Source: a virus. Taken from it: 64,000 nucleotides of DNA. The notes under the pieces were generated by a model. The model searched no databases and was not told where the DNA came from. It saw only the letters and a program-made list of their open reading frames with translations. This document shows positions 10,492 to 56,730 of the stretch, piece by piece. The stretch covers positions 2,621-66,620 of IMG/VR virus record IMGVR_UViG_3300027973_000056; one strand, 5' to 3'. The first letter of the stretch is position 1. Every line of letters begins with the position of its first letter. The position numbers and the translations under genes were made by a program.

Positions 10492-10497
10492 GTTTAC

Positions 10498-10743: not shown

Positions 10744-10757
10744 AATATATATTTTTG

Positions 10758-10829: not shown

Positions 10830-11015
10830 ATTTAACGTTTCTTTAATTTTATATTTTTTACATCTTTTTTTAGGTATCTCAACATAATATGAACCAAATA
10901 CAGAAATAAAAAGTCCAACATAGTTTTCTCCTTGTTCACTAACTTCTTGTAAAACGGTTCCTTCATATAAATGAGGAAAAATATCCGCGCTATCTTTTTT
11001 TACAACTACTTTCAT
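10800..11015 (-). CDS. hypothetical protein (3' end runs into tRNA-Cys)
   Basis: 71-aa ORF; last 10 codons lie within the tRNA. Confidence 0.55.
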   Translation of the reverse strand: MKVVVKKDSADIFPHLYEGTVLQEVSEQGENYVGLFISVFGSYYVEIPKKRCKKYKIKETLNGRLAEWIRR

Positions 11016-11027
11016 TTTAATTTATTT

Positions 11028-11246
11028 TTAATGTGTTCCGTTTGTTAATGAAATCCCATGCCTTACTCCTGTAATGAAATCTTCAATTTCTTCTTCGGTC
11101 ATATTGTTATATCTCTTACCGACAGTATGTCCAATCTCATTACCACAATCACTTAAATCTCCTTCGTATATTGTTACATCTGATTTTCCTTTCAAAGATA
11201 CAGAAATCCAAGATAAATCACTACTGTTAAATGTTCTTTTTTCCAT
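11028..11246 (-). CDS. hypothetical protein
   Basis: 72-aa ORF. Confidence 0.65.
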   Translation of the reverse strand: MEKRTFNSSDLSWISVSLKGKSDVTIYEGDLSDCGNEIGHTVGKRYNNMTEEEIEDFITGVRHGISLTNGTH

Positions 11247-11251
11247 ATTTT

Positions 11252-11875
11252 TTAATTTAATGAATTTGGGTAATACAATAATGTCGGGTTCTTTTTTTGG
11301 ATATCAACCTCGGGATATCTTTCCTTAAATTTCATCACATTAAAAGGTTGAGTTATAATATGGAACCCACTTCTTGTTTTAATAAAAGTCATTCCTTGTT
11401 CTTTTCCCGCCTCTTTCTGTAACTCGTTTATATATTCTCTCATTTTAATTTGACTTGGAGAATGGTTAAATCCATCAATGGATACATTATCAATATCAAT
11501 AATCCATCTTTTCTCTTGAGTCTTTATCTGTCCCACAACCGAGTCAAATAACCCCTTTTGGTTCTGAACTCCATTCTTAATTCTCTCAGCCAAACTTGCC
11601 AACATATCCAAAGACACATCTCTGTGATTTTGTTTCTGAACATGAATGTAAGCTCTTGCCTTGAACATCTCACATAATTGCATCACCTCATCATATCTCC
11701 TTTCCAAATGGTCAACTGATTCAATGCAATATGTTTTAATAGTTCTAACCGACTGATGGTTATCTCTTTCTCCTTCAGGTTGGTCTTTCTTACGTTTGAA
11801 AACATACAGCATATAGAAGTCACCCTTCTCCTCAAAGTTCAATAATGGTTTTATTATGTCTATATTGTTTATCAT
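11252..11875 (-). CDS. AEP (primase-polymerase)-fold-like protein
   Basis: hhDhD (WIIDID) and TRSGFH motifs; ATG at 11875 preferred. Confidence 0.5.
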   Translation of the reverse strand: MINNIDIIKPLLNFEEKGDFYMLYVFKRKKDQPEGERDNHQSVRTIKTYCIESVDHLERRYDEVMQLCEMFKARAYIHVQKQNHRDVSLDMLASLAERIKNGVQNQKGLFDSVVGQIKTQEKRWIIDIDNVSIDGFNHSPSQIKMREYINELQKEAGKEQGMTFIKTRSGFHIITQPFNVMKFKERYPEVDIQKKNPTLLYYPNSLN

Positions 11876-11889
11876 ATCATTTTTTTTTG

Positions 11890-11992
11890 TTGTTAAGGTG
11901 GGATTCGAACCCACAACGTAGTCTCGTAAAGAGAATCATCACCGTTTCGACTTACCGAGCCCTGTGCTCGTTTACATATCTACTACTTAACT
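11890..11992 (-). ncRNA. tRNA-like RNA with rearranged core
   Basis: GTTAAG/CTTAAC acceptor-like stem and perfect T-arm GTGGG-TTCGAAT-CCCAC; no canonical D or anticodon arm. Confidence 0.55.
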
Positions 11993-12330
11993 TCCTACCC
12001 CACTTCACCAGCTTAACGGACTGGCTGCCATATGGGAGTGGGGGTTTCCCGTTAATTCGGGACTCCGCGATGTTGCGGGAATCGAACCCACTCGATGAAC
12101 TACTTGTGATATGCACCAACCATTTGCTCCAATCCTAGTATTAAGGAGTGTTACCTACAAATCACCATCATTCAACCCTTTAACACCAAATTTGACTACT
12201 GACTGACTCCTTTCGAACTTTGAGGGTTTGTATCATTCAATATCAGTAGTCCAAGGCTGTAGGAGCTCATCTTTACACTTAGGCTCTTTGTCTTCTCATG
12301 TTGCAACATTTACGACCGTAGCGTCACCTT
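11993..12330 (-). ncRNA. candidate structured ncRNA(s)
   Basis: GC-rich, no credible ORF; T-arm motif 12075-12091; stems CCCCACT/AGTGGGG, GACTACTGA/TCAGTAGTC, CCTACA/TGTAGG. Confidence 0.5.
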
Positions 12331-12335
12331 GTTTG

Positions 12336-12408
12336 TGGTACGAGGTGGGTTCGAACCACCGACAACTTGTTCTTCAGACAAGCACTCTACCAACTGAGTT
12401 ATCGCACC
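12336..12408 (-). tRNA. tRNA-Phe(GAA)
   Basis: Cloverleaf, loop CTGAAGA. Confidence 0.9.
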
Positions 12409-12411
12409 AAG

Positions 12412-12484
12412 TTTAAAGTTAAAGTCGCCCACACTTGTTCGGGGCGGGACCTTTCGGTCACCTTCGACATCCCCTCAACTTTAA
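12412..12484 (-). ncRNA. candidate small structured RNA
   Basis: TTAAAGTTGA/TTAACTTTAA closing stem with GACC-GAAA-GGTC and CGCCC/GGGCG hairpins. Confidence 0.45.
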
Positions 12485-12696
12485 TTCACTTCAATATCTT
12501 CCAAAGGTACATCTTCTCCCTGAGTATGTTTATAAACTGTATTAAAAAACTCTCCTAACAATCTATAGTCCTCAGGAATCATATGACAAAAATCAAATGC
12601 AGGAATTGCACCATGAATTTGACCTTGTACTACCTTATCAAACTTATCATCTGGTTTGTACTCAAACACAGTATGTCCTCTAAAAATATATTTCAT
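12481..12696 (-). CDS. hypothetical protein
   Basis: 71-aa ORF. Confidence 0.6.
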   Translation of the reverse strand: MKYIFRGHTVFEYKPDDKFDKVVQGQIHGAIPAFDFCHMIPEDYRLLGEFFNTVYKHTQGEDVPLEDIEVN

Positions 12697-12697
12697 A

Positions 12698-12798
12698 ACT
12701 TCCGATTTTGTCTTGTTTTTACTTCCGAATTTGGACGGGTTTTACTTCCGACTTTGTCACTGCTCACATTTGAGGAAGTTTACTGCTCAAATTTGAGA
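12698..12798. repeat. degenerate tandem repeats, 23-bp period
   Basis: ACTTCCGAnTTTG at 12698, 12721, 12744; ACTGCTCAnATTTGAG at 12759, 12782. Confidence 0.75.
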
Positions 12799-12804
12799 TT
12801 TATG

Positions 12805-12877
12805 TAGTCCCTGTAGGAATCGAACCTACGACAACTTGCATGTAAGGCAAGTGCTCTTCCAACTGAGCTAAGAGACT
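12805..12877 (-). tRNA. tRNA-Val(TAC)
   Basis: Cloverleaf, loop CTTACAT. Confidence 0.9.
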
Positions 12878-12882
12878 AAATG

Positions 12883-12956
12883 TATCGCGTACGGGGCTCG
12901 AACCCGTAATCTTCATCGTGAAAGGATGACGACTTAACCAATTTGTCCAACGCGAC
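12883..12956 (-). tRNA. tRNA-Glu(TTC)
   Basis: Cloverleaf, loop CTTTCAC. Confidence 0.9.
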
Positions 12957-12966
12957 ATTTGTTTCA

Positions 12967-12998
12967 CAAAGATACAACCAATATTTCAAAGAGCCAAA
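12967..12998 (-). promoter_or_regulatory. Bacteroidota-type promoter directly upstream of tRNA-Glu
   Basis: TTTG (12998-12995)-N20-TATCTTTG (12974-12967); the spacer contains boxA-like GCTCTTTGAA. Confidence 0.6.
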
Positions 12999-13001
12999 AA
13001 C

Positions 13002-13036
13002 AAAAAACCCTGAACTTCATTTCTGTAGTTCAGGGT
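13002..13036 (-). terminator. attenuator terminator A
   Basis: ACCCTGAACT-N10-AGTTCAGGGT followed by T-tract; 5' arm can alternatively pair with 13097-13088. Confidence 0.8.
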
Positions 13037-13058
13037 ATATAAAAAATTTGGTTTATTT

Positions 13059-13169
13059 TTAGTTTAAAAAATTATTCAAAATTATATCCGAACTACATGA
13101 CTGCATACGCTCATACCAACAAGTTTCTTGTTGTTGACTAAAGACTGTATGTTTTATTGTAGTTCTCAT
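13059..13169 (-). CDS. putative attenuator leader peptide A (36 aa)
   Basis: MRTTIKHTVFSQQQETCWYERMQSCSSDIILNNFLN*; codons match the downstream tRNAs; contains the antiterminator segment. Confidence 0.75.
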   Translation of the reverse strand: MRTTIKHTVFSQQQETCWYERMQSCSSDIILNNFLN

Positions 13170-13187
13170 TGTTTCTAATATATAGTT

Positions 13188-13218
13188 CAAAGATATGAAA
13201 AAATCTTTGAGTGTCAAA
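13188..13218 (-). promoter_or_regulatory. Bacteroidota-type promoter for leader A
   Basis: TTTG (13218-13215)-N19-TATCTTTG (13195-13188), 18 nt before the leader ATG. Confidence 0.7.
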
Positions 13219-13243
13219 TATTTTTCCAAGTATTTATAAAAAG

Positions 13244-13663
13244 ATGAAGACATTAAGAGAAATTATTAAAGAAAATTTATTAGTTGAGAAAAGAATAACT
13301 CAAGTTAACTCATCTTTAGAAGTTTTATTTGTATTTGATGTGAATAGAACCAGTCATGCGTTCGATAGAGATACTAGAGATGATATTGAAGGATATAACA
13401 TAAGAGCGATTGAGAATGATGAAATCAGAGAAATTATCAGTAAGGTAAAAAAAGAAATCTCCGAAAAAATAGTAACAAGAGAAATTGTACCTGAAGAAGA
13501 TTTTGTCGTAAAATCTTTAAAGTGGGAATTGGCAATGGCGATAACTCCTGTTCATATGGGAGGAACCTATTGGCAACTAATCATCAAAACAGTATTTAGA
13601 GAATCCAATCATAACCCTTTTAGAGTTGGTAAAAATCAATTGGTTATTTATTCTGACATCTAA
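13244..13663 (+). CDS. hypothetical protein (late-type, LREIIKENLLVE N-terminus)
   Basis: ATG 13244 after TATTTAT 13231-13237. Confidence 0.7.
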   Translation: MKTLREIIKENLLVEKRITQVNSSLEVLFVFDVNRTSHAFDRDTRDDIEGYNIRAIENDEIREIISKVKKEISEKIVTREIVPEEDFVVKSLKWELAMAITPVHMGGTYWQLIIKTVFRESNHNPFRVGKNQLVIYSDI

Positions 13664-13664
13664 T

Positions 13665-13754
13665 AAAAAAGGGTAACACTAGTATCTGAATCGTTCCCGT
13701 GTTACCCAGTTTGTAATTGAGCTTGTGTATCTAAATCGTGCTCCTCAATCACAA
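13665..13754 (-). ncRNA. candidate sRNA with two hairpins carrying the same loop motif
   Basis: TATCTTTG promoter 13764-13757; ACGATTYAGATAC in both loops; ends GGGTAACAC/GTGTTACCC plus T6. Confidence 0.6.
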
Positions 13755-13816
13755 TACAAAGATACAAAAATATTTTGGTTTACAAAATCTATTGTATTTT
13801 TTTTTTATAAATATTG

Positions 13817-13897
13817 TACCCCAAGTCGGACTCGAACCGACACGACTTACGTCACAAGTTCCTAAAACTTGAGTGTCTACCATTCCACCATCGGGGT
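13817..13897 (-). tRNA. tRNA-Leu(TAG)
   Basis: Loop TTTAGGA, variable arm. Confidence 0.9.
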
Positions 13898-13902
13898 ATA
13901 CA

Positions 13903-13994
13903 TTATCATCGCTCCAGCCACATCGAGGAACACGCCGCCCCCGCGTTGTTTAAGTGTATGAATTGCGCCGTATCTCACTGAGTTACGATGATAA
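13903..13994 (-). ncRNA. candidate structured RNA between tRNA-Arg and tRNA-Leu
   Basis: Closing stem TTATCATCG/CGATGATAA, inner CTTCAGT/GCTGGAG, GC-rich core. Confidence 0.45.
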
Positions 13995-13997
13995 TTG

Positions 13998-14071
13998 TGA
14001 TTCGGAAAGGATTCGAACCTTTGACCCCAAACTTAGAAGGTTTGTGCTCTATCCAGCTGAGCTACCGAACC
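13998..14071 (-). tRNA. tRNA-Arg(TCT)
   Basis: Cloverleaf, loop CTTCTAA. Confidence 0.9.
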
Positions 14072-14279
14072 AAATTTCCCCACCTGAAATCCCAGTGAGT
14101 AGATATTCGCAGTTTTTCGTATTGAAAAACCCAACGCGTCTTACCGCTTAAAAAGTCAAACATACTCGGTGGCGTTGTTACGACCATTCTCCGAGACCCC
14201 CTCTTAAGGCCGTGGTAGGAAACAACCATAACATCTTTAAAGAACGTTACCAAACTTGATGAGTACTTCTAACTCATTG

Positions 14280-14361
14280 TATCAGAGGTGGGACTCGAAC
14301 CCACACGAGCAAAGCTCAACAGATTTTAAGTCTGTCTTGTATACCATTCCAACACTCTGAC
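14280..14361 (-). tRNA. tRNA-Leu(TAA)
   Basis: Loop CTTAAAA, variable arm; TATCTTTG promoter at 14378-14371. Confidence 0.9.
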
Positions 14362-14401
14362 ATTGTTTTACAAAGATAGTGAATATCTTTAATAAAGTCA
14401 T

Positions 14402-14434
14402 AAAAAAACCCCGAACTTTTTTAGTCGGGGTTTT
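14402..14434 (-). terminator. intrinsic terminator
   Basis: AAAACCCCGA/TCGGGGTTTT stem with T-tract. Confidence 0.7.
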
Positions 14435-14451
14435 AATTATAATAATTATTA

Positions 14452-15171
14452 TTAATCATTAAAACTTTCCTCGTAATAAGTATCGCTTGCGTTATCTTCT
14501 ATATTTTCTGTATGAACCAATTCGATTGTCATATCATGAAAATTGAATATAAATTGTCCATCAGAACCTTCATTAATTTCCCAACCACTATAGTTATCAC
14601 TAAGCTCTCTGTAACACCAATCTTCAATTGCAGCTGGAACTCCATCACCTGTTTCATTAAAACTACTTTCAAGATATCCCGAATCACCAGAACCATTATA
14701 TGTTACTATTAAAATCCCATCGTCAGGAATTGTAAGGTCTTCTAATACTCCACTTTCTTCCCATTCTTCAAATAGCTCCTTTCCTTGTTCATCCTCCCAA
14801 GTAACTGAACTACCTTCTCCTCTAGTATAAAAAGACCACCAACGAGTAAAACTAATTTTTTTAGAATCTACGTCAATGTCGTATTCAAGTCTTTGATAAT
14901 TCGTATCATCATTATCAGGTTCTCTAATTAAATTATTATCATCGCAATATTTCATAATTTTTTGAAGTATTGGAATCAATCCTGATGGAATATCTGCATT
15001 GTAGTTATTAGTGAAATGGGTTACATAATCCCAATCAACATTGTCATAATCAAATTCCTCTTGATTATCCATATCAATTTCAATGTTGCCGTCTTGCATT
15101 CCCATTGAACCTAAGTAATTGGATATTCTTCTTAAATATTGTTTTTCTTCTGGTGTTAAAATTCCTTTCAT
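14452..15171 (-). CDS. DUF6878-like protein
   Basis: YNGSGDSG...GWEINEGSDG motif. Confidence 0.6.
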   Translation of the reverse strand: MKGILTPEEKQYLRRISNYLGSMGMQDGNIEIDMDNQEEFDYDNVDWDYVTHFTNNYNADIPSGLIPILQKIMKYCDDNNLIREPDNDDTNYQRLEYDIDVDSKKISFTRWWSFYTRGEGSSVTWEDEQGKELFEEWEESGVLEDLTIPDDGILIVTYNGSGDSGYLESSFNETGDGVPAAIEDWCYRELSDNYSGWEINEGSDGQFIFNFHDMTIELVHTENIEDNASDTYYEESFND

Positions 15172-15182
15172 ACTTATAAATA

Positions 15183-15536
15183 TCAGTCGTTGAACTCTAG
15201 TTTAATTGTTTTTAACATCCATTGAGGACGTTGATTTGTTGATACGTTATTTATCCATTCTTTGGCAGATGGAATGTAGTTATTACAATCTTCTTTAACA
15301 TGTTGTTCTCCAACATATCTGGTGTAGACTGTAGTCCCGTCGCTATTCTTAAATTCGGCCCCAAATCTTTTTTCCATTTCAAAAATACCCTCACTATGAT
15401 GTCTAAACATTCTATGAAGTGAATCTCCAAACCATCCTTTAGTCTCATCTAACCATTCATGTAGATGAATATAGTCTTCAGGTTTTCCACCAAATTTTTT
15501 GGCGGATGATTTTGCATGTAAGTTAGGGTGTGCCAT
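15183..15536 (-). CDS. DUF6915-like protein
   Basis: MAHP..HAKSSAKKFGG..EDY..HEWLD..HR..RHH..G..EQHV.ED signature. Confidence 0.7.
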   Translation of the reverse strand: MAHPNLHAKSSAKKFGGKPEDYIHLHEWLDETKGWFGDSLHRMFRHHSEGIFEMEKRFGAEFKNSDGTTVYTRYVGEQHVKEDCNNYIPSAKEWINNVSTNQRPQWMLKTIKLEFND

Positions 15537-16101
15537 TTTTCCAAGAGTCTTTATTGTAGTTAAAATATACGAAATCTTCTTCTAAATAAGAATAAACATA
15601 ATCAGCCAAATCTTGGTCATAATATTCTTTATAATCATATCCTGATGAATAACCGTTGTTTAAAATGTTATCATACACAATATCAAAAAGTTCATGTGAA
15701 TCATCCATAAAAAATGGAAGTTTTAATATGTCTGAGTATAAATTCTCAACTCTAATTAATAAATCAGGAGTTTTGGTAATCCTTTTTTTTAAAAAAAATT
15801 CATAATCCAAAGTTTTGCCAGGAAATTTTATTTCTTCATGCAATTTTTGTCTAATCCAACTATTAAAGTCATTAGGAATTAAATTAGAGTGTATACAAAA
15901 AAGATGATATATTGAAATCATTCTGATATATGGATTTCTTGTATTTAAAACAAAAAAATATTCTTCTTTACCTTTTGGAATTTGCAAACCATGTAGTCCA
16001 ATAACGTCAAATTCAAAGTATGTTTGAATAGGCATGCATGACCTTGCTGCCGTTCTAATAGGTGTTGCCCACAATACTTTATATTTGTCAGAATAATTCA
16101 T
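15523..16101 (-). CDS. sulfotransferase-family (Sulfotransfer_2-like) protein
   Basis: P.RTA.RS and RNPY.RMIS PAPS-binding-like motifs; EDF..FNY tail. Confidence 0.6.
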   Translation of the reverse strand: MNYSDKYKVLWATPIRTAARSCMPIQTYFEFDVIGLHGLQIPKGKEEYFFVLNTRNPYIRMISIYHLFCIHSNLIPNDFNSWIRQKLHEEIKFPGKTLDYEFFLKKRITKTPDLLIRVENLYSDILKLPFFMDDSHELFDIVYDNILNNGYSSGYDYKEYYDQDLADYVYSYLEEDFVYFNYNKDSWKNGTP

Positions 16102-16334
16102 TATAAAATCTTTTCTTGTCTTCTTCTTGCCATTTCAGCGTCTTTGTACCATCTAATCCAAGTTAAAGACACATCAATTGGTGCTAACACCCAAGCCATA
16201 ACCATAACCATAATAGTATCTAATTCAGGAGACCCACCTGTTGGGTCATCACTATACCTTTTACTAAGGTTTTTAAATAACTGATAGAAACAATATATTA
16301 CACATACAAGGTAATATCCAATAAACATACTCAT
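16101..16334 (-). CDS. small membrane protein
   Basis: ATG 16334; two hydrophobic segments. Confidence 0.6.
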   Translation of the reverse strand: MSMFIGYYLVCVIYCFYQLFKNLSKRYSDDPTGGSPELDTIMVMVMAWVLAPIDVSLTWIRWYKDAEMARRRQEKIL

Positions 16335-16349
16335 AAATAAAAATTTTTG

Positions 16350-16422
16350 AGCCTCCTGTCGGACTCGAACCAACGACCACTTGTTTACAAAACAAGAGCT
16401 CTACCAACTGAGCTAAGGAGGC
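16350..16422 (-). tRNA. tRNA-Thr(TGT)
   Basis: Cloverleaf, loop TTTGTAA. Confidence 0.9.
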
Positions 16423-16425
16423 TTA

Positions 16426-16500
16426 TGGAGCAGATGAGAGGAATCGAACCTCCGTCTCCTACTTGGAAGGAAGGAGTAATGACCATTATACGACATCTGC
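16426..16500 (-). tRNA. tRNA-Gly(TCC)
   Basis: Loop CTTCCAA, encoded CCA. Confidence 0.9.
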
Positions 16501-16556
16501 GTGGAGTGCAGTGGGAGGTACCTTCCCTGTGGTTACTACACATTTTATCCACTTTG

Positions 16557-16629
16557 CGGTCCCGACGGGATTCGAACCCGTATCTCGCACCGTGACAGGG
16601 TGGAATTGTAACCATTCAACCACGGAACC
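16557..16629 (-). tRNA. tRNA-Asp(GTC)
   Basis: Cloverleaf, loop CTGTCAC. Confidence 0.9.
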
Positions 16630-16656
16630 GTGTATGGGGAGTTTCACCCCAAACTT

Positions 16657-17145
16657 TTACTCAACAAAGATATGATTATATTCCAATATTCTTCGTTTTA
16701 ATTTATTAACATATTGTGGGTCCTCGGCATAAACTTTACCGAGTAATGCAAAATATTGTTTTTTTGTCATATCATTACGTGATTTTAACATGTGGTCTTG
16801 CCACAATGAGTAATCATACACGCTATACCCCCAATCTTCGTATTTTGAGTAACCACTTTGGGTTTCCCCAATCTTTGCGGATTCTCTTTTACTTGGAACT
16901 TTCATTCCAAAAAGATTATTAGCTGATTTGAACAACTTTGATGTAAACTCTCCTGATTCTAATATAGCTTGTGCAAACACAATATCAGGAAATTTTATAC
17001 CATACTTAATTATCTGCTCATACAAACTTTCTTTTGAGATACTCTCTTGAGTATTTGATTCAATCTGTACTTGCTTCTCTTGTGCTTTGGTTGCCATTGT
17101 TCCTAACAATAACATCCCAGTCAATAAGAATGTTTTTAACTTCAT
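16657..17145 (-). CDS. GH73/FlgJ-like glucosaminidase with signal peptide
   Basis: AQAILESG, NNLFGMK and YAEDPQY motifs. Confidence 0.85.
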   Translation of the reverse strand: MKLKTFLLTGMLLLGTMATKAQEKQVQIESNTQESISKESLYEQIIKYGIKFPDIVFAQAILESGEFTSKLFKSANNLFGMKVPSKRESAKIGETQSGYSKYEDWGYSVYDYSLWQDHMLKSRNDMTKKQYFALLGKVYAEDPQYVNKLKRRILEYNHIFVE

Positions 17146-17225
17146 TTCTTTCTTTTTGTCTGTTTATGCTTCAGGATTGCTCCATCCACGATACTACAAC
17201 ATTGGAATTTTTCCACCTACCGCAG

Positions 17226-17297
17226 AGGCCCCTGTAGGATTTGAACCTACGACCAGTTGATTAACAGTCAACTGCTCTACCACTGAGCTAAAGGGCC
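17226..17297 (-). tRNA. tRNA-Asn(GTT)
   Basis: Cloverleaf, loop CTGTTAA. Confidence 0.9.
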
Positions 17298-17337
17298 TTA
17301 TAATAATAAATAAAATTTCCAATAAAGGAAACTTTTG

Positions 17338-17411
17338 TCGGGATGGCTGGATTCGAACCAACGGCCTCCACGTCCCAAACGTGGCGCGATACCTGACTAC
17401 GCTACATCCCG
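17338..17411 (-). tRNA. tRNA-Pro(TGG)
   Basis: C1-G72, loop TTTGGGA. Confidence 0.9.
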
Positions 17412-30746: not shown

Positions 30747-31907
30747 ATGAAAAAACATAAAATAATCGATACCATATTTTTTTATGATGAAATAGACATG
30801 TTATTGTTTAGACTTACCGAATTAAACGAATATGTTGACCATTTTATCATTATGGAGTCAAACATTGATTTTTTAGGAAATTTAAAACCTCTTTTCTTTT
30901 TGGAAAATCAAAACTTATTTGAAAATTGGAAGGATAAAATTACATATTTACCGACTTCAAATATTACTTCAGATACCATTTCATCTCTACATGATGAATT
31001 GAAAAAGGCCAGATGTGGTAGTAATTTTACATTATCAATAAACAGAGATAATATACAACTTACCCAATTAAATAATTTAAAAAATTATTTGCTGTCAACT
31101 GACTTATCTTTTGAAGATTTAATATTAATATCTGATGTTGATGAAATTCCAAATTTATCTGATTATCATATCATTTTAAATAAACTAAAATTTAACCCTG
31201 TCATTTTACGACAAAAAAATTTCCAATGGTCCAAAGACTATATTAATACCAAACCTCATTTGGGTACTTGTTGTCTATTATTTACAAGTATAATAACAAC
31301 CCTACCACATTTTTTTAAGCTTTATTTTATTCGAAATGACATACATTCTCAATTGTATGAGATTATTGATTCTGGGTATCACTTTTCACATTTTTCATCA
31401 ATGGATAAAACCAAAGAAAAATTATCATTATTAAATCCTGAAATTTCAGAATCATACATAAAATATTGTTGGGATAATTTAATTTCTTTAACGACCGACG
31501 AAACCAAAAGAAAATATAGTTTGATTGAATATGACGGAGAACTACCAAAAAATATTAAATTAATTCAAAGTCAAAAAATTAGCCGAAATTTTTCAAAAAA
31601 ATACACAATAACATTAGACTATAACAAAGTTGAATCGACATTTAGTTTAAACGTGCATTGTGAGGAAAATAATCAATTTGATATTCTATTGCCAACATCA
31701 AAATATTATGATATTTTAATAGAGGAGAATACTCTTGAGAATTTTCAAAAGATGTACTGCGTTAATGAAATTAAAAAAATAATAAATTCTTTTAACCCAT
31801 TAAGCCGAGACCTATTTAAGTTTGTTAATGATGGCAAATTTATAGAATATTCGTGGGCAGAATTAAAAAATGAATTTATTTACGATAGAATTAAAGATAT
31901 CCTATAA
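30747..31907 (+). CDS. GT17-like glycosyltransferase
   Basis: FFYDE.DML..RL.EL..VD.FII.ES, SDVDEIP, G.HFS. Confidence 0.75.
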   Translation: MKKHKIIDTIFFYDEIDMLLFRLTELNEYVDHFIIMESNIDFLGNLKPLFFLENQNLFENWKDKITYLPTSNITSDTISSLHDELKKARCGSNFTLSINRDNIQLTQLNNLKNYLLSTDLSFEDLILISDVDEIPNLSDYHIILNKLKFNPVILRQKNFQWSKDYINTKPHLGTCCLLFTSIITTLPHFFKLYFIRNDIHSQLYEIIDSGYHFSHFSSMDKTKEKLSLLNPEISESYIKYCWDNLISLTTDETKRKYSLIEYDGELPKNIKLIQSQKISRNFSKKYTITLDYNKVESTFSLNVHCEENNQFDILLPTSKYYDILIEENTLENFQKMYCVNEIKKIINSFNPLSRDLFKFVNDGKFIEYSWAELKNEFIYDRIKDIL

Positions 31908-31937
31908 AAAAACCCCTCCGTTAAGAGGGGTTTGTTA

Positions 31938-33503
31938 TTAATTGTATTTGTTAAATCTGTTAAACATTTCCATGATTTTGTTTTTCTGAGTTTGAAATGA
32001 CTCTTGTAAGTCTTCATCAATTTCACTCCAATCAGTATCACCAAAATGAGACTTAATATCTTCCCATGAACTCATCGCATCTAAACCTTCGTAATCTGAT
32101 GGGTCAAATTCATCATCGTCAAAATCTTCTCCCTTATCTTTAGCATCTTGTTGTCTTTTCATCTTTTTCCACGCATGTGCTGGTAAATATTGTTCGTCAG
32201 TTTCACCTTCATATGAAAATTCTTGATAAGGTCCCGCTTTACCTGGCCCTTCACTATCAAAATCAAATGCTGGGTCCATATCACTATAAACACCCTGAGA
32301 ACCTGAAATATCTACTTCATCAATTTCATCTGCCCAAGCTGATTCCATTGGTTCCCAACATTCTTCACATTCTCCATCTTCATTTACAGGATAAACTGAA
32401 TCTGGCCCGTTTGATTCAAAATCGTAAGCTGGTTCAACATCATCAACATCCATGTCATAAGAATTTCCACCTTGTTCATCTAAGTTATCAACAAATCTCT
32501 CAATATGTTTTCCTGGCATTAAATGAGACATTGAATCTTTACCTTTAAAATGATACATTTTTTCTCCATGATTTTTATCCTCATGTTCATCATCAAATTC
32601 AATTTCATCCTCAAAACTTGGTGTACTATATCTGTATTTTCTACCTTTTTCTAATTCATGAGTACCTAATTCGTCTATTTCGCCATTACTTGATTTCTCA
32701 AGGTCAACTAACCCAAGGTCAACTAATCTTTTTGTAAAAACTTTTCTTGGTAATTTTCTTAAGTATCTAATAACAATTGGTGGAATATCATCGCCATATT
32801 GACCAAAAAGTTTTGCTAAAATGTCTTTTTCTTTTGGAGTTGGTTCAAAGCTAGCTCTTGCACGAGAAGCTTTCATTCCAAATTTACCTTTTTCGTACGG
32901 TTTGTCGTCTGTTTCATCTTCACCCATTTCTGCACTATTTAAATCTTCAAATCCGTCATCTTCATTATCAGGGTCTTCAAAATTATCATTATAATTTACA
33001 AAATCATCTGATTCGTCTTCTCGATATAAATTTTTGTACATTCCTTCAAATGTATCTACATCATTACCACCACCTTCAACATAGTCAAAATCGCCATGTT
33101 TTAAGTTAAGGTCTTTAACTTTATAAATGTCATCTAAATGACCTGTCTCTTCTTCTAATCCATCCATTAAAGTTGCATCCCAATCAGAATCATCTTCTTC
33201 TGACATGCCATCTTTATAACCACATTCCATACATTCACCTTCGTACATTTCTCCACCACACTCACACATAGATTTTTTAGAAACTTGTTCGTTAATTCCC
33301 ATGTTTGTATATTTCTTAACCTCACCTTTATTATTAACCACTAATCCTTCTTTGTCTCCAGCAAAATCATATACAGTTAATGGTTGAGTATTTGATACTT
33401 GCGGTTGCATTGTTTGGTAACCGTTATATACACTTTTATGTTGGTCTAATATATCTGACTTCTCAGTTGCAGATAATTGACCTAATCCAAAATAACCTCT
33501 CAT
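31938..33503 (-). CDS. highly acidic protein, possibly head core/scaffold
   Basis: 521 aa, D/E-rich, many (I/L/M)xE sites, duplicated PAYDFES.GP motif; TATTTAT upstream. Confidence 0.7.
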   Translation of the reverse strand: MRGYFGLGQLSATEKSDILDQHKSVYNGYQTMQPQVSNTQPLTVYDFAGDKEGLVVNNKGEVKKYTNMGINEQVSKKSMCECGGEMYEGECMECGYKDGMSEEDDSDWDATLMDGLEEETGHLDDIYKVKDLNLKHGDFDYVEGGGNDVDTFEGMYKNLYREDESDDFVNYNDNFEDPDNEDDGFEDLNSAEMGEDETDDKPYEKGKFGMKASRARASFEPTPKEKDILAKLFGQYGDDIPPIVIRYLRKLPRKVFTKRLVDLGLVDLEKSSNGEIDELGTHELEKGRKYRYSTPSFEDEIEFDDEHEDKNHGEKMYHFKGKDSMSHLMPGKHIERFVDNLDEQGGNSYDMDVDDVEPAYDFESNGPDSVYPVNEDGECEECWEPMESAWADEIDEVDISGSQGVYSDMDPAFDFDSEGPGKAGPYQEFSYEGETDEQYLPAHAWKKMKRQQDAKDKGEDFDDDEFDPSDYEGLDAMSSWEDIKSHFGDTDWSEIDEDLQESFQTQKNKIMEMFNRFNKYN

Positions 33504-33584
33504 AATAATATTTTTATTATAAATAGTTTGAAATTCTTCTTTTTTTAGTTTGACTTATTGCAGAAGGAATTCTATTATTTTGAT

Positions 33585-33666
33585 TAGGGGGAGGTCCAAC
33601 TTCATTTTGATAGTATCTTGGTAATTTACTTATCGCCTTCATTTTGGATTTCTCCCTATTTTTTTT
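33585..33666 (+). ncRNA. candidate trans-acting antisense sRNA
   Basis: 15-bp stem 33585-33599/33644-33658 with G:U pairs, T8 tract; 44-nt loop complementary to start regions at 51757-51780 and 59020-59034. Confidence 0.65.
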
Positions 33667-33921
33667 ATGACAATTTCAATCGACGATATTAACGAACAAG
33701 CTGAAGGGGCCGTATTATTAGACGGTCTTAATGACGCAATTATTGGAATTGTTGAGGAATTCGGCAACGGACCGAGAATCCTATACTCCAAAAACAAAGT
33801 TCTTCAGATTCTTGAAGACCGAGACGGAATGACTCCACTCGAAGCAGTTGAATTCTACGAATACAATATTTTAGGTTTATTCGCTGGAGACCAAAATCCC
33901 ATTTTTTTAATTACAGAATAA
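33667..33921 (+). CDS. hypothetical phage protein
   Basis: LDG..DAIIG...YS...EA.EF..YNI.G...P pattern. Confidence 0.75.
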   Translation: MTISIDDINEQAEGAVLLDGLNDAIIGIVEEFGNGPRILYSKNKVLQILEDRDGMTPLEAVEFYEYNILGLFAGDQNPIFLITE

Positions 33922-33937
33922 TTCTTATCTTTGTCGT

Positions 33938-34615
33938 ATGATAAAAGTACCTGTAGATACCAAAAATATCCCAGAAGTTAATGTATGGATTACTTCTGAC
34001 ACCCACTATTCTCACAAGAATATATGTAGGGGTGTAACCAGTTGGAGAACACCATCAGGTGAAATTCCTGTGTCTCAAACTCGTGACTTTTCCACAATAG
34101 AAAAAATGAATGCCTCAATTGTTAATAACATTAATGAAGTTGTTGGTCAAGATGATATGTTAATTCACCTTGGTGACTGGTCTTTTGGTGGAAACGAACA
34201 AATACGTGAATTTTGGGATAGAATCATATGTAAAAATATTCACTTAGTGTTAGGAAACCACGACCACCACATCGAAAACAATAGAGATGGATGTCAGGGT
34301 TTATTTAAATCTGTTTCTCACTACAATACACTTGAAATGGGACAGTTTAAGTTCCGTTTGATGCACTACCCTATAAGTTCATGGGATGGTCTTGGTAAAG
34401 GTGTAATGCACTTACACGGTCACTGCCACTTACCAAACAATTTAAAACTTAGTAAAGGTCAAAGAATGGATGTGGGTATGGATGGTCACCTTGAGTTTAG
34501 ACCATACAATGTTTATAGGGAAATTGTTCCATTACTTAGAAACAGACCTAAAGTTTCTGAAATAGGTGAATATGACCATCATTTAGATAATATTCAAAAT
34601 AAGGATAATGGATAA
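33938..34615 (+). CDS. calcineurin-like metallophosphoesterase
   Basis: SDTH, HLGD, GNHD, HYP, HGHCH. Confidence 0.88.
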   Translation: MIKVPVDTKNIPEVNVWITSDTHYSHKNICRGVTSWRTPSGEIPVSQTRDFSTIEKMNASIVNNINEVVGQDDMLIHLGDWSFGGNEQIREFWDRIICKNIHLVLGNHDHHIENNRDGCQGLFKSVSHYNTLEMGQFKFRLMHYPISSWDGLGKGVMHLHGHCHLPNNLKLSKGQRMDVGMDGHLEFRPYNVYREIVPLLRNRPKVSEIGEYDHHLDNIQNKDNG

Positions 34616-34928
34616 GTCAGTTAAATTATTTTATACTCCTCCAAAAGATGAATGCTTTGAAGAATTACGAACAATTTGCATTCGTTTTTGGAGGACTTTT
34701 GATGAGGTTGAATATGTAGATGAGAAAATTAATAGAATAAAAAATTTAAAAAATGAAGGTTGTAATTTTGTGATGATGATTCAAATGATTCATGCAGTAA
34801 GTAGGGAATTTATTGCAAAAGCATTATCTTTGGAGACTCGAAATGAAATTAGTATGAGGTTACATGGGTGGGAAAAAGAAAACGAATTTGATTTTTTCAA
34901 TATATGGAATATAAACAATAATTTATGA
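34608..34928 (+). CDS. hypothetical protein
   Basis: 106-aa ORF in operon. Confidence 0.65.
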   Translation: MDKSVKLFYTPPKDECFEELRTICIRFWRTFDEVEYVDEKINRIKNLKNEGCNFVMMIQMIHAVSREFIAKALSLETRNEISMRLHGWEKENEFDFFNIWNINNNL

Positions 34929-35338
34929 ATGGAGTATTATTTTTAGTAAGAGGTTTACCTGGTTCAGGTAAGACATCATTTGCATCGGCTATTTGGAATG
35001 AATATGCTGTATGTGAAGCAGACAAATTTTTTTACGATAAAGAAGGGAACTACAATTTTGACGTGTCAAAGTTAAAGGAGGCACATACTTGGTGTAAAAA
35101 TCAAGTTGAGACCAAAATGATTGACCATCAAAATAACCAACAATATTATCCTGAAATTGCAGTTTCAAATACCTTTACCCAAGAATGGGAAATGGAAGAT
35201 TATTTCAAATTAGCAGAAAAATATGGATATAAAGTAGTATCTTTGATTATTGAAAATAGACATGGTGGACAGAACGTTCATGGAGTACCAGAAGACAAAC
35301 TCCAAATAATGAAAGATAGATTTCAAATTAAATTATAA
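34925..35338 (+). CDS. P-loop polynucleotide-kinase-like protein (AAA_33)
   Basis: RGLPGSGKT, EAD.FF, VSNTF, N.HGVP. Confidence 0.85.
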   Translation: MNGVLFLVRGLPGSGKTSFASAIWNEYAVCEADKFFYDKEGNYNFDVSKLKEAHTWCKNQVETKMIDHQNNQQYYPEIAVSNTFTQEWEMEDYFKLAEKYGYKVVSLIIENRHGGQNVHGVPEDKLQIMKDRFQIKL

Positions 35339-35342
35339 TATT

Positions 35343-35576
35343 ATGATAAGTCCATTTTGTTATATTGCAATACACAACTGGGAATACCGTAGAGAGAAAC
35401 ATAAAGTAGAGAATCATCCATTAGGTAGAGACGTAATCAGAGTAGTGGTTAGGGAATGCAAATGGTGCGGACATAGAGAACATCATACCTTGCCAAGAGT
35501 TGGTAAAAAATTTACTTTTTGGAGAAATTTTGATACTATTGGTAAAGACGACACAATAAAATTTGAACAATTATAA
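35343..35576 (+). CDS. hypothetical protein (DUF1660-like Cys/His)
   Basis: C...HNW...ECKWCG. Confidence 0.55.
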   Translation: MISPFCYIAIHNWEYRREKHKVENHPLGRDVIRVVVRECKWCGHREHHTLPRVGKKFTFWRNFDTIGKDDTIKFEQL

Positions 35577-35587
35577 AAAACAATCAC

Positions 35588-35806
35588 ATGCAAACATTAG
35601 TATTTAACACATCAACAAAATCAGTAAAACTTTATGAAGGAAATGAGTCATCTCCAATCCTTTATACTTTTGACTCAGTACCAACCGTAAAAATTGAAGT
35701 CGGTTATTATCAAGTAATGCAAGTAGACGGAGCATCAACAGAAGACAAAAGAGTACCTGTCGCCCGTTTCCCTGTATCAAACACAAACATGTTAATTAAG
35801 AAATAA
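35588..35806 (+). CDS. hypothetical protein
   Basis: 72-aa ORF in operon. Confidence 0.65.
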   Translation: MQTLVFNTSTKSVKLYEGNESSPILYTFDSVPTVKIEVGYYQVMQVDGASTEDKRVPVARFPVSNTNMLIKK

Positions 35807-35807
35807 A

Positions 35808-36896
35808 TTGAATTTAGATATAAACATATTGAACGAATACCTTGAGAAGGGTTTGGTGGTTAAAAATGACCATCCAACCCTTCCATTGTCTATTTGGAAT
35901 TATTCTCGTACTTGCCAGTATGAGAATAAGTGGGATGATATTACCAAAATGTGCCGAGGTCTTATCTTGGATAGAGAAGGTAATGTTATTGCTAAAGCGT
36001 TCAATAAGTTTTTTAACTACGAAGAATTAACTTTAAACGATATACCTGAAGAATCTTTTGAGGTATTTGAAAAATTGGATGGTTCTTTAGGTATTTTATT
36101 TTGGTATCAAGGCAAATGGATATTAGCAAGTAAAGGTTCGTTTACTTCAGACCAATCAATTAAGGGTAGAGATATTTTAAATAAAAAATACAACGTAGAA
36201 GTATTACCAAAAGGATATACTACCGTTGTTGAAATTATTTACCCTGAAAATCGTATTGTTTGCGATTACGGTGTTGATGAAGAATTGGTTGTACTGTCTA
36301 TGGTGAGTAACGCAAATGGTAAAGAATTGGACTACGATTCTATGTTGTCAATCAACGAAGTAAGTGGATTTCCAACCATTAAGAAATATGATGGTATCAC
36401 AGATTATGATACCCTTAAAGATAAGATTAACGGTAACAGAGAAGGATATGTAATTCGTTTTAAGAATGGATTTAGAATGAAAATAAAAGGAGAAGAATAC
36501 GTTCGTCTTCACAGAATCTTAACTGGATTTTCAAATGTGGATATATGGGAATACCTTAAAGACGGAAAAAATATCGATGAATTACTTGACAGGGTTCCTG
36601 ATGAATTTGATAAGTGGGTTAAAACCACAATTCGAGATTTAAAATATGAATGTTTTCAATTGAGGGAGAGAGCAGGAAAACTTCACGATGGATTCCGTTA
36701 TGGAAAATATGGTGATGTAGACCCTGAACCATCTAAAAAAGAATTTGCAGAATTTGTTATGAAACAACAAGAAGTTTTACATGCAATTATGTTTGCGATG
36801 TGGGACCATAACAACGAAAAAGTTGACGATATTATTTGGAAATTAGTTAAACCAAAATATTCAAAACCATTTTGGCAAAAAGAAATTGAACCATGA
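35808..36896 (+). CDS. RNA ligase, T4 Rnl1-like
   Basis: CRGLI, KFFN, EKLDGS (adenylated Lys), EGYV, KIK..EY. Confidence 0.88.
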   Translation: MNLDINILNEYLEKGLVVKNDHPTLPLSIWNYSRTCQYENKWDDITKMCRGLILDREGNVIAKAFNKFFNYEELTLNDIPEESFEVFEKLDGSLGILFWYQGKWILASKGSFTSDQSIKGRDILNKKYNVEVLPKGYTTVVEIIYPENRIVCDYGVDEELVVLSMVSNANGKELDYDSMLSINEVSGFPTIKKYDGITDYDTLKDKINGNREGYVIRFKNGFRMKIKGEEYVRLHRILTGFSNVDIWEYLKDGKNIDELLDRVPDEFDKWVKTTIRDLKYECFQLRERAGKLHDGFRYGKYGDVDPEPSKKEFAEFVMKQQEVLHAIMFAMWDHNNEKVDDIIWKLVKPKYSKPFWQKEIEP

Positions 36897-42810: not shown

Positions 42811-42895
42811 GGAAGCTTGCCAGAGTGGTTGAATGGAACGGTCTTGAAAACCGTCATACTGAAAGGTATCTGGGGTTCGAATCCCTGAGCTTCCG
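42811..42895 (+). tRNA. tRNA-Ser(TGA)
   Basis: Loop CTTGAAA, long variable arm. Confidence 0.92.
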
Positions 42896-42991
42896 CAAAC
42901 TTGGAGTACGAGGAACTAACATAAACGGAGTACTTAACCCATAAGTTTATTAAATTAAATTATAAGGTTTCCAGTGAGTTAGTTCAAATAT

Positions 42992-51269: not shown

Positions 51270-51761
51270 TTATTTTATTTCAAATAATTTATTTACCAAT
51301 TTGTTACTAGATTTTTTTAACGCATTACTTAATGATTGCTGGTTAAAATTACCACCATTATCAATCGCCAATGTTGACATTGATATTTCTGAAGATTCCT
51401 CTTCAACAATAACTTCTTTGATTTTTTTACCGTCGTGTTTTAAAATTCCTTTAAGTCGGATTACAACGGATTCTGCGTCCTTGTGAAAAACAGAAAGATT
51501 TGATTTGGTTTTTAATACATCTAAATAAATGATGTCAATTGTAACTTTATCCTTTGATTCTGGATTAAGTTCAAAATCTTTCTCTTGTAAAAATTCTTCT
51601 ACTACGTTTTTTACACCAAACTCAAGGTTACGGTTACCCGCAAGGTTTCCTATTTGAATCTTGTTAGAAACAGATTCAACCCATATTTCTTTTGTTTGGT
51701 CTAAATTGTTTGATGATAGAGTGAGCATTCCGCACACTACTAGTAGTAGAAGTTTGTTCAT
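51270..51761 (-). CDS. secreted alpha/beta protein (CsgG/LptE-like fold possible)
   Basis: Signal peptide; first gene of the operon; TATTTAT upstream. Confidence 0.6.
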   Translation of the reverse strand: MNKLLLLVVCGMLTLSSNNLDQTKEIWVESVSNKIQIGNLAGNRNLEFGVKNVVEEFLQEKDFELNPESKDKVTIDIIYLDVLKTKSNLSVFHKDAESVVIRLKGILKHDGKKIKEVIVEEESSEISMSTLAIDNGGNFNQQSLSNALKKSSNKLVNKLFEIK

Positions 51762-51828
51762 TTTAATTAGTATCTTGGTATCTATAAATACTAACTAACT
51801 GCCTATTTATTACTAAAGATTTAAAATT

Positions 51829-56124: not shown

Positions 56125-56333
56125 AAAATAAGATAAACGATGGCCATTATTTAGAATTAATGGATAGATTACATGTACAAACATGTATGATAGATGACCA
56201 CTTAGTAAGTCATCCATTAACAAAAAAAATAAAAAAGGCTAAAAAACTTATTGATAGTGCGGTAATGTCTTTAGCTGAAGCATATCAAATTGTAGGTAAT
56301 GAATCTTATAAAAAAATAAAGAAAAATGATTAA
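56121..56333 (+). CDS. hypothetical protein
   Basis: 70-aa ORF. Confidence 0.65.
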   Translation: MKNKINDGHYLELMDRLHVQTCMIDDHLVSHPLTKKIKKAKKLIDSAVMSLAEAYQIVGNESYKKIKKND

Positions 56334-56730
56334 AATTTATTTAGATGATGTAAGAACTCCTGTGGATAAAGATTGGATTATCGTAAGAGATTACGAACAA
56401 TTTGTATCTAAAATTCAAGACATTGGATTGGAAAACATTGAGTTAATTTCTTTGGACCATGACTTGGGGGACACTGCAATGTCTGAATGGCATAAAAATG
56501 TTTATCACAACTATACTTTAAATTACGATAACATTTTAGAAAAAACAGGAATGGATTGCACCAAGTGGTTAGTAGAACAATGGTTAGATGGAAAACCTGT
56601 GGTAGATGTGGTAGTTCATTCTGCAAATGCAATTGGAAGTGCTAACATGATGGGATATATTAACAATTATCGACACATAAATAGATTACCTCAAAATTGT
56701 GTTAGAGTGAGAATAGAACATACCGTATAA
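56326..56730 (+). CDS. cyclic-phosphate-processing receiver-domain protein
   Basis: IYLDD.R, ISLDHDLG, TG.D, HSAN..G. Confidence 0.8.
   Translation: MIKIYLDDVRTPVDKDWIIVRDYEQFVSKIQDIGLENIELISLDHDLGDTAMSEWHKNVYHNYTLNYDNILEKTGMDCTKWLVEQWLDGKPVVDVVVHSANAIGSANMMGYINNYRHINRLPQNCVRVRIEHTV

Follow-up and report, generated by a model that had tools for sequence, protein, structure and literature searches.

In a giant phage of lake bacteria, a hairpin is encoded in the gap where a 521-aa protein gene on the − strand and an 84-aa protein gene on the + strand diverge. Does it give rise to a small RNA that acts on distant genes of the same phage? The window analyzed here, a stretch of 64 kb that is part of a 66.6-kb virus contig, has a G+C content of 32% and carries 22 tRNA genes, a tmRNA, RNA-repair genes and genes for thymidylate synthase, PPK2 and ClpP. 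A blastn search of phage sequences in GenBank returned only distant Flavobacterium and Aeromonas phage matches, all to the genes neighboring the hairpin. The relatives used below are giant phages with Bacteroidota-type promoters. A preliminary description had proposed that the hairpin belongs to a + strand RNA and that its loop is antisense to the start regions of two late genes far from it, and covariation of the structure, conserved blocks, compensatory changes and co-occurrence in relatives all speak for that proposal. We put the chance at about three in four that the element is an early, trans-acting antisense RNA that would pair at the 5′ ends of a late mRNA for a secreted lipoprotein-like protein and of another for a holin-like protein.

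The hairpin and two complementary leaders

The features of the locus and of its two predicted targets are collected in Table 1. The outer stem, P1, contains 15 bp, including 3 G:U pairs, and closes a loop of 44 nt (33600–33643), inside which GAUAGUA pairs with UAC-U-UAUC to form a second helix, P2. When the sequence was read, the hairpin and both loop matches of the preliminary description turned out to be real, with its 3′ arm one base off. The + strand folds at −25.7 kcal/mol (z −3.98), a value that none of 200 shuffles equaled, and the − strand at −16.0 kcal/mol (z −2.38). Among relatives, the mean folding energies are −21.9 (+) and −18.6 (−), and a strand call on energies is undecisive, the − strand being equal or better in 4 of 25. 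The covariance models of Rfam 15 gave no match at gathering score in the hairpin region, and at E ≤ 10 the interval 33400–33800 drew only three unrelated weak hits, to bxd_7, snoR53 and SAM_alpha. A 41-aa open reading frame on the − strand (33517–33642) was considered as coding and rejected: a GGAG-like box precedes its ATG, yet the frame is lost in relatives and its third-codon positions are invariant. The region 33585–33666 is likely a small RNA gene on the + strand, with a predicted product of about 75–80 nt.

Table 1. Coordinates of the hairpin locus and of its predicted targets in the window
Feature	Positions	Strand	Basis or remark
521-aa acidic protein gene	31938–33503	−	divergent neighbor of hairpin
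Putative RNA promoter: TTTG/TTGACT (33549–33555) and TATTATTTTG (33573–33582)	33549–33582	+	motif match
P1 5′ arm (UAGGGGGAGGUCCAA)	33585–33599	+	fold; covariation
5′ internal loop (CUUCAUUUU), predicted anti-AUG extension of target 1 pairing	33600–33608	+	8-nt block equals 51757–51764
P2 helix	33609–33615 with 33627–33634, one bulge	+	fold; alignments
Seed A (GAUAGUAUCUUGGUA), complementary to target 1 mRNA	33609–33623	+	RNA–target pairs in relatives
Apical loop (UCUUGGUAAUU), 11 nt	33616–33626	+	nearly invariant in relatives
Seed B (UUGGUAAUUUACUUA), complementary to target 2 mRNA	33618–33632	+	RNA–target pairs in relatives
P1 3′ arm (UUGGAUUUCUCCCUA)	33644–33658	+	fold; covariation
U8 tract abutting P1, likely intrinsic terminator	33659–33666	+	immediately 5′ of ATG 33667
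84-aa gene, phrog_13182 (unknown function)	33667–33921	+	downstream neighbor of hairpin
Target 1: 5′ UTR and start (UACCAAGAUACUAAUUAAAAUGAA) of 163-aa gene 51270–51761	51757–51780	−	complementarity; relatives
TATTTAT, putative late-type promoter motif of target 1	51784–51790	−	motif enrichment; 3-nt spacing to module fixed in 29 loci
Target 2: entire 5′ UTR and AUG (UAAGUAAAUUACCAAAUAUUAUG) of 83-aa gene 58763–59014	59012–59034	−	complementarity; relatives
TATTTAT, putative late-type promoter motif of target 2	59038–59044	−	motif match; relatives

Exact copies of the 13-mer TAGTATCTTGGTA occur at 33611 and 51768, and exact copies of the 15-mer TTGGTAATTTACTTA at 33618 and 59020. The loop thereby matches target 1 over 51757–51780 in blocks of 8 and 13 nt (TTCATTTT at 51757–51764 and the 13-mer at 51768–51780) and target 2 over 59020–59034 at 15 of 15 positions. 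Both matches are antisense to the 5′ ends of − strand genes, with ATG codons at 51761–51759 and 59014–59012, that lie 18.1 and 25.4 kb from the hairpin. Read on the − strand, target 1 is GTATTTAT-AGA-TACCAAGATACTA-ATTAAA-ATG and target 2 is ATATTTAT-TGG-TAAGTAAATTACCAA-ATATT-ATG, and in both the complementarity to the loop begins 3 nt past TATTTAT and runs up to the AUG. The spacers between promoter motif and ATG, at 22 and 23 nt, are the longest of the TATTTAT class in the window. The two target blocks have only TACCAA in common, yet both are contiguous in the RNA loop. A second anti-AUG block of the preliminary description, CTTCATTTTG at 33637, is present in the window and, among relatives, only in the close ones; the anti-AUG block of the internal loop is likewise lineage-specific, the G003/G004 group having UUUUCAUCC in its place.

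The gene of target 1 encodes a lipoprotein-like product with a signal peptide and opens a − strand cluster that includes a cohesin-domain protein. The earlier CsgG label of this operon was not confirmed, Pfam finding no CsgG; the sole family signal of the target 1 protein is a sub-threshold hit to Lipoprotein_16. The target 2 protein, judged from its translation, has two hydrophobic segments (two-TM) and a charged C-terminus. Holin-like here means only a small two-TM protein with no family match.

Taken on its own, the window is only suggestive. Allowing up to 2 mismatches, the 13-mer has 11 matches in the window against 2.24 expected, a number reached in none of 100 shuffles, and most of the surplus consists of the ordinary promoter box TA(G/T)TATCTTTGTA. 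For the 15-mer with up to 3 mismatches there are 14 matches against 10.1 expected, and 16 of 100 shuffles reach 14. When 400 random 45-mers of the window were drawn, 4.5% had an exact match of at least 15 nt elsewhere and 33% one of at least 13 nt. The matches are marginally beyond chance, and because these statistics are weak the weight of the argument falls on related sequences.

These same figures lend some credit to the idea that the 13-mer is a weak variant of a host-type −7 box (TAGTATCTTGGTA vs. TAGTATCTTTGTA) firing on the + strand, or that the repeats are functionless products of chance or gene conversion. The likeness is indeed close and counts against an antisense reading, with 12 of 13 positions identical to the box before the tRNA-Ile at 9076, and such boxes are common in the window. 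The hairpin copies do not behave like boxes, however: all 35 in 77 related loci read TGG where the box has TTG, the + strand genes beside target 1 have TATTTAT promoters of their own, and in most lineages the target 2 block occurs without a box. In a complete 326-kb relative (G004), only 3 sites lie within 1 mismatch of the 15-mer, and chance repeats would not be expected to stay invariant across lineages whose flanks are saturated with change. This explanation is highly improbable. Two related proposals were also set aside. The 13-mer as + strand promoter of the genes at 33667 and 51829 fails on their own TATTTAT motifs and on a block that is invariant as TTGG, and the module as a general late promoter of the − strand fails on the scarcity of its sites in the complete genome.

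The preliminary description had suggested comparing the loop with all phage 5′ regions and with shuffled controls, and pairing energies were computed between the loop and the region from −35 to +15 of each gene. Among the 97 window genes, the two targets hold the top two places (−29.4 and −27.8), followed by a third at −20.7, the median being −10.0; the best of 100 shuffled loops in the window gives −26.7 and so reaches neither value. Among 369 genes of the complete relative, their orthologues again come out on top (−41.7 and −28.1). Cofolding with the full hairpin still favors the duplexes: the window targets gain −9.0 and −4.1 and those of the relative −17.7 and −5.5, compared with −2.5 at best for shuffled targets.

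Structure, complementarity and co-occurrence in relatives

Comparison of related sequences documents that structure and complementarity are conserved, that changes are compensated and that RNA and target occur together, while we infer expression, early timing and the direction of effect (repression). With the 84-aa protein as query, 77 related viral loci were gathered; the hairpin lies upstream of the 84-aa gene in 35 of them and in other contexts elsewhere, recurring as 40 distinct versions and with one hairpin per genome. The outer stem differs wholly between lineages (GGGGGAGGUCC, ACAAGUGAG, AAGUGGGGUUCU, ACAGGUUGGUC and others), yet it always pairs, and the loop core GATAGTATCTTGGTAATTTAYTTATCGCC is almost invariant. 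When 23 sequences were aligned with MAFFT, without fitting to a model, 88.3% of the cells were paired, a share that drops to 34–51% when the partners are slid. An alignment of 41 matches (40 distinct) fitted to, and so biased toward, its own model has 91.8% standard pairs against 35–47%; in it, 10 of 18 pairs change on both sides, with a covariation score that none of 500 shuffles reached. In P1, 10 of the 11 pairs change on both sides among the 40 distinct sequences, whereas P2 is paired in 93.7% of cells with one-sided changes only (G-C to G:U in 13 sequences). One relative, G010 (L035/L036), has the promoter fused straight to the ATG and no hairpin; it is a fragment that carries neither target gene.

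The target blocks are just as constrained. For target 1, 80 loci encode a relative of the protein, and 29 of them, all close orthologues, have the pattern TATTTAT-NNN-(T/A)ACCAAGATACT(A/G)-N4-6-ATG, to which the window's block TACCAAGATACTA conforms. The 51 loci outside the exact pattern include truncated loci, distant homologues with other N-termini and two close orthologues, which keep the block behind a late motif TATTTATA-CAA/GAA with a 4-nt spacer. For target 2, TATTTAT-NNN-TAAGTAAATTACCAA-N3-6-ATG is found in 47 of 78 loci. Counted by unique upstream sequences, the block is present in 31 of 51 (28 exact, 3 with one change); 12 others have TATTTAT and a short plain leader, and 8 have neither. 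Variation is free in the NNN spacer and between block and ATG, whereas the 13-nt and 15-nt blocks are invariant. A TTGGTAA/TTACCAA hairpin reported earlier at target 2 depends on the 3 variable nucleotides of the spacer, which are TGG in 20 of the 28 unique exact-module sequences, and is thus no general feature.

Where the seeds do change, some partners change with them. In G036 and G037, GTTAGTAACTTGGTA in the RNA faces TACCAAGTTACTAAC in a late leader at a distance of 7.8 kb, with two U-A pairs swapped to A-U; the natural pair in G036 is GTTAGTAAC in the RNA and GTTACTAAC in the target. G006 keeps its pairing through one G-C to A-U swap, and two changes that separate G042 from G036 give two G:U pairs. 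Across the 8 unique target 1 pairs with seed A (16 records), there are 113 Watson–Crick, 3 G:U and 4 mismatched cells, and across the 9 unique target 2 pairs with seed B (22 records), 122, 5 and 8, respectively. Most of the target 2 mismatches oppose the first two target bases, which may precede the transcript start. The co-variation of loop and targets that the preliminary description had asked for is therefore present as swapped pairs that keep complementarity in two lineages, but weak in the flanks beyond the invariant cores: duplexes average −29.3 within genomes against −27.7 across genomes, 145 of 5000 permutations being as low, and the RNA's own target is its best partner in only 2 of 9 cases.

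The complete genome G013 lacks both the gene and the block of target 1 and retains the target 2 block intact; the four changes in its RNA are confined to seed A (TAGTTCACTGGTA), and 13 nt of seed B persist. RNA and target also tend to occur together. When 50 of the 80 target 2 records were searched with the RNA model, 26 had both block and RNA, 15 had neither and none had the RNA where the block is absent; a further 8 had the block alone, all fragments 11–49% complete, and 1 had the RNA with an unreadable block. If only records with a completeness of 90% or more are counted, all 4 that have the block carry the RNA and none of the 5 that lack the block does. This co-occurrence falls in few clades, so that a single gain may explain it. 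G007, G008 and G012 have RNA and target on one and the same DNA strand, whereas the window has them on opposite strands; antisense at the level of RNA is kept in all of these. In G007 and G008, a TACCAAGATACT block after TATTTAT-NNN precedes genes for a 103-aa TM/coiled-coil protein and a PAS-repeat protein.

Could the three sites, in the hairpin and in the two leaders, instead be double-stranded DNA binding sites of one phage regulator, with an operator overlapping the late start at the targets? The fixed position of the blocks, 3 nt after TATTTAT, is where an operator would be placed, and the same changes in both G036 copies would be expected if the specificity of the protein had shifted; identical changes in two DNA copies could also reflect gene conversion or a co-evolving, shared DNA-binding protein. 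One protein motif is insufficient for the two blocks, however, with TACCAAGATACTA and TAAGTAAATTACCAA having only 6 nt in common, and the covariation of P1 around the hairpin site has no role in such a scheme. Most differences between copies can be accommodated as G:U pairs when read from RNA to mRNA (8 G:U vs. 2 A-C cells), and seed A decays where target 1 alone is lost. An operator is quite unlikely on this evidence. What the relatives do contain, namely a conserved seed facing conserved sites in unlinked mRNAs, with compensatory change, is what would be expected of a trans-encoded base-pairing sRNA.

Promoters and a probable independent RNA gene

Two promoter classes are relevant to the timing of this system. 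The first is TAnnTTTG, mostly in the form TATCTTTGTA, which occurs 5–23 nt before tRNAs, the tmRNA and several genes, and which we take to be the Bacteroidota −7 box. The preliminary description had noted the hexamers TTGACT (33550–33555) and TATTAT (33573–33578), spaced by 17 nt, before the hairpin, and they are there. As a σ70-like site, however, this is one of 36 in 31000–36000, against 26.6 ± 4.6 in shuffles, and is not significant alone; it is better read as a promoter of the Bacteroidota −33/−7 type (TTTG ... TAnnTTTG). Its TTGAC is near-invariant in 26 aligned relatives, and the −7 region is a perfect TAnnTTTG in four related lineages (L302, L320/L321, L325), although imperfect in the window. 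The conserved pair, TTTGAC ... TAnnTTTG-like, ends 2–8 nt before P1, a motif match that points to a promoter belonging to the hairpin itself.

The second class was derived from the complete relative, in which 369 greedy ORFs were called. The most enriched upstream 8-mers, ATATTTAT and TATTTATA, each stand before 47 genes where about 3.4 would be expected. Of the 369 genes, 88 have TATTTAT in the 80 nt upstream, 70 of these at 0–19 nt from the ATG, and in the window the motif precedes 20 of 97 genes, 16 of them at 0–19 nt. Among 71 proteins of the relative that were scanned behind TATTTAT, PHROG matches include tail fibers, a baseplate wedge subunit, a head-tail adaptor, a head maturation protease and several endolysins, while most have no PHROG match. 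The motif derived here and the genes behind it suggest a late-type phage promoter, and it is in this inferred sense that the targets can be called late, as they had been. A host-type TAnnTTTG box and a phage-type TATTTAT motif 4–22 nt before the ATG should help to annotate these phages. The 521-aa gene has its own TATTTAT motif 15 nt upstream of the ATG, so that − strand transcription need not traverse the hairpin. The PPK2 gene has one too, and neither gene therefore requires a promoter inside the hairpin or a transcript that reads across it.

A more serious challenge is that the hairpin might be only the 5′ leader of an early mRNA, either purely cis-acting or bound by the late mRNAs so that the early transcript is shut off or destabilized. 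Both in the window and in 33 related loci, the hairpin is directly followed by the ATG of the 84-aa gene. A T run of at least 6 after P1 is found in 15 of 27 unique versions and is absent in 12, mostly of one lineage; the large L013 group has no U-run, and in such lineages the element may act within an mRNA leader. Four of five metatranscriptome runs identified were compared and yielded only low-depth contigs without strand or end information, and none from this phage covers the hairpin, the contigs of X1 and X2 (at least 99%) covering only the 521-aa gene, up to 33477. In the RNA library of one relative, a contig covers the loop core and continues into the 84-aa gene, as could be the case for a leader and a small RNA alike.

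Copies that stand alone argue the other way. In G011/G012, G013, L322–L324, L330 and L331, a host-type promoter is followed by the hairpin, by T8–T11 and then by a separate TAnnTTTG promoter of a different gene; in G013, the hairpin promoter reads TTGACA-N17-TATATTTGTA. The 84-aa gene is missing at the hairpin locus in G012 and G013, which answers the objection, raised in advance by the preliminary description, that the hairpin is only the 5′ UTR of gene 33667. The downstream gene is the 84-aa gene in the window, a metallophosphoesterase gene in G013, other small ORFs in G012 and an MQT... gene in L322–L324, whereas a riboswitch or other cis-acting leader would be expected always to precede the same gene or pathway. 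The constant neighbor is rather the divergent gene for the acidic protein. Stand-alone copies with differing downstream genes indicate that the element is an independent gene, and a purely cis-acting role would not account for a complementarity to two 5′ UTRs far away that is conserved and co-varies. We regard the leader explanation as unlikely and return to the antisense RNA.

Predicted action and relation to known systems

An antisense RNA at this locus would be transcribed by host RNA polymerase from the Bacteroidota-type promoter and would, by that token, be early. The transcript is predicted to fold into a long hairpin in which P1 is variable in sequence but paired and P2 exposes the apical loop, and to end at the U8 tract in this phage, with some read-through into gene 33667 possible. 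Two overlapping seeds would be available in the loop region. Seed A, together with the anti-AUG stretch, would pair with the first ~24 nt of a late mRNA starting at 51780, and seed B, in a duplex that extends to about 22 bp and includes one bulge, with the entire 5′ leader of the holin-like mRNA, whose start would lie near 59034. Both mRNAs presumably arise from phage TATTTAT promoters, the complementarity starting 3 nt after the motif, at about the transcript start. UUGGUA, the hexamer common to both seeds, lies in the apical loop, and pairing may nucleate there and spread 5′-ward for target 1 and 3′-ward for target 2. As the duplexes would reach across the short leaders as far as the AUG, the most likely outcome is that translation is blocked or that the duplex leads to decay. 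The secreted protein cluster and the holin-like protein would then be held back until late mRNA outnumbers the RNA. Bacteroidota are not known to depend on Shine–Dalgarno pairing for translation initiation or to possess Hfq.

A bolder version, offered tentatively and with the odds somewhat against it, is that the RNA serves as a clock for phage lysis and envelope functions. Host polymerase would make the RNA from the first minute and so set a threshold that late mRNAs must exceed, while TATTTAT-NNN followed by the complement of a seed would be a portable tag that enrolls new genes, for which the G007 and G008 blocks could be examples. Action would take place at the extreme 5′ end of very short leaders. 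If the antisense reading is true, uncultured giant phages of lake bacteria possess a conserved regulon under a trans-acting RNA that links early and late programs and probably the timing of lysis. Natural variants suited to tests are at hand, namely the swapped pairs, the lineage minus one target and the lineages without the system.

How does such an RNA compare with known systems? The c4 antisense RNA of phages P1 and P7 is processed from the operon transcript of its own target and controls one antirepressor for immunity. Like the RNA proposed here, it is a structured, phage-encoded RNA whose exposed loops pair in trans with a phage mRNA and block the downstream gene, an effect that is a prediction in the present case. 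Here, however, a virulent-type giant phage with Bacteroidota-type promoters would have the RNA as a separate early gene, and the two late targets are unlinked to it, at distances of 18 and 25 kb. The PeSL cassettes of T4-type phages are many near-identical promoter–stem-loop copies thought to drive recombination, and they resemble the present element as short, conserved units of promoter and hairpin in phage intergenic regions. They differ in that there is one hairpin per genome here, and the targets are complementary 5′ UTR blocks rather than copies of the hairpin.

Type I RNA antitoxins are, as a rule, encoded adjoining or overlapping the toxin gene. The holin-like gene, a small hydrophobic membrane protein gene as in type I pairs, lies 25 kb from the RNA in the window and about 18 kb from it in the complete relative. 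In pairs with a separately transcribed RNA antitoxin, such as IstR-1/tisB (PMC2887945), an sRNA represses a small hydrophobic membrane protein through pairing with the 5′ region, as predicted here; apart from the 25 kb distance, the present case has a second target that is not a toxin, and its membrane protein is presumably a phage lysis protein. The RNAs OOP and aQ of lambda (aQ: PMC12197685, accessible text) and sar of P22 also tune the timing of phage expression by antisense pairing, as is predicted here, but they are transcribed opposite their targets and are fully complementary to them, whereas this RNA would be trans-encoded with seeds of 13–27 nt; no conserved gene lies opposite the hairpin, as a cis-antisense RNA would demand. 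DicF and Esr41 (PMC12197685, accessible text) offer a parallel as short trans-acting RNAs with their own promoter and terminator that pair with the 5′ regions of several mRNAs, all of which is predicted here. Those prophage-encoded RNAs act on host mRNAs with Hfq in enterobacteria, according to the same text, while the predicted targets here are the phage's own late mRNAs.

The phage sRNAs described in the accessible part of that review are either cis-antisense RNAs of temperate coliphages or prophage RNAs acting on host genes, and the words "holin" and "Bacteroid" are absent from the review. In the literature searched on phage sRNAs, holins and the late genes of jumbo or Flavobacterium phages, as far as its text was accessible, no such RNA is described, and neither an sRNA that controls a holin nor one in a Bacteroidota phage is mentioned. 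The mechanism would be an ordinary one for antisense RNAs, while the family, the host group and the regulon appear to be new.

Presence or absence of the hairpin in close relatives

Between close relatives, the whole hairpin of the putative small RNA gene, some 75 nt, is cleanly present or absent (loci L035/L036 versus L033). In both cases the same promoter lies on one side of the variable segment and the start codon (ATG) of the 84-aa gene on the other, and the hairpin behaves like a discrete unit that is inserted or deleted.

Probable late-type promoter motif and the region of site 3

The phage-specific, promoter-like motif [AG]TATTTAT[AT] lies 4–22 nt 5′ of the ATG in 20 of 97 ORFs of the window and in 88 of 369 ORFs of G004, the complete 326-kb relative (loci L095–L111). 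The leaders of many genes behind it would be very short or absent.

Beside site 3, the RNA's predicted target at the holin-like gene, the seed, that is, the loop segment complementary to late-mRNA 5′ ends, is nearly copied in the same sense as TAGTATCTTAGTA (59055–59067, minus strand). This near-copy forms the final codons and stop of a 699-aa Laminin_G-domain gene, just 5′ of the site-3 late promoter, and is also retained in three related loci (L206, L209 and L120).

Other RNA genes and RNA repair

The phage encodes a tmRNA and 22 tRNA genes, most of the latter in a single minus-strand cluster, and TATCTTTGTA boxes occur immediately 5′ of several of them. The 91-nt tRNA-SeC-like gene scores 25.7 bits with the Rfam tRNA model, below the 29-bit threshold, and could be a UGA-reading tRNA or else a tRNA-like RNA; under the standard code, the ORFs of the window appear open. 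Within 13650–13767 (minus strand), the roughly 100 nt that follow the strong TTGTATCTTTGTA box carry neither an ORF nor a tRNA call, and this stretch may be a further small RNA. The RNA-repair set includes, besides a cyclic-phosphate receiver domain, an AAA_33 kinase-like protein, a T4 Rnl1-type RNA ligase and HAD/PNKP-like phosphatases, and the hairpin RNA gene heads one of its clusters.

RNA-related features of the window
Feature	Position	Strand	Remark
tmRNA, phage-encoded	2117–2530	+	Rfam RF00023, 93.9 bits
Promoter box TATCTTTG	2089–2096		ahead of tmRNA
tRNA genes (n = 22)	8562–17411; 42811–42896	−; +	
tRNA-SeC-like gene	61571–61661	−	ARAGORN call, anticodon TCA
TATCTTTG boxes (n = 2)	61686–61693; 61782–61789		shortly upstream of tRNA-SeC-like gene
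Strong promoter box TTGTATCTTTGTA	13755–13767	−	
RNA-repair gene set	34925–36896; 4920–5534; 6199–6594	+	
Cyclic-phosphate receiver domain	56326–56730		RNA-repair set
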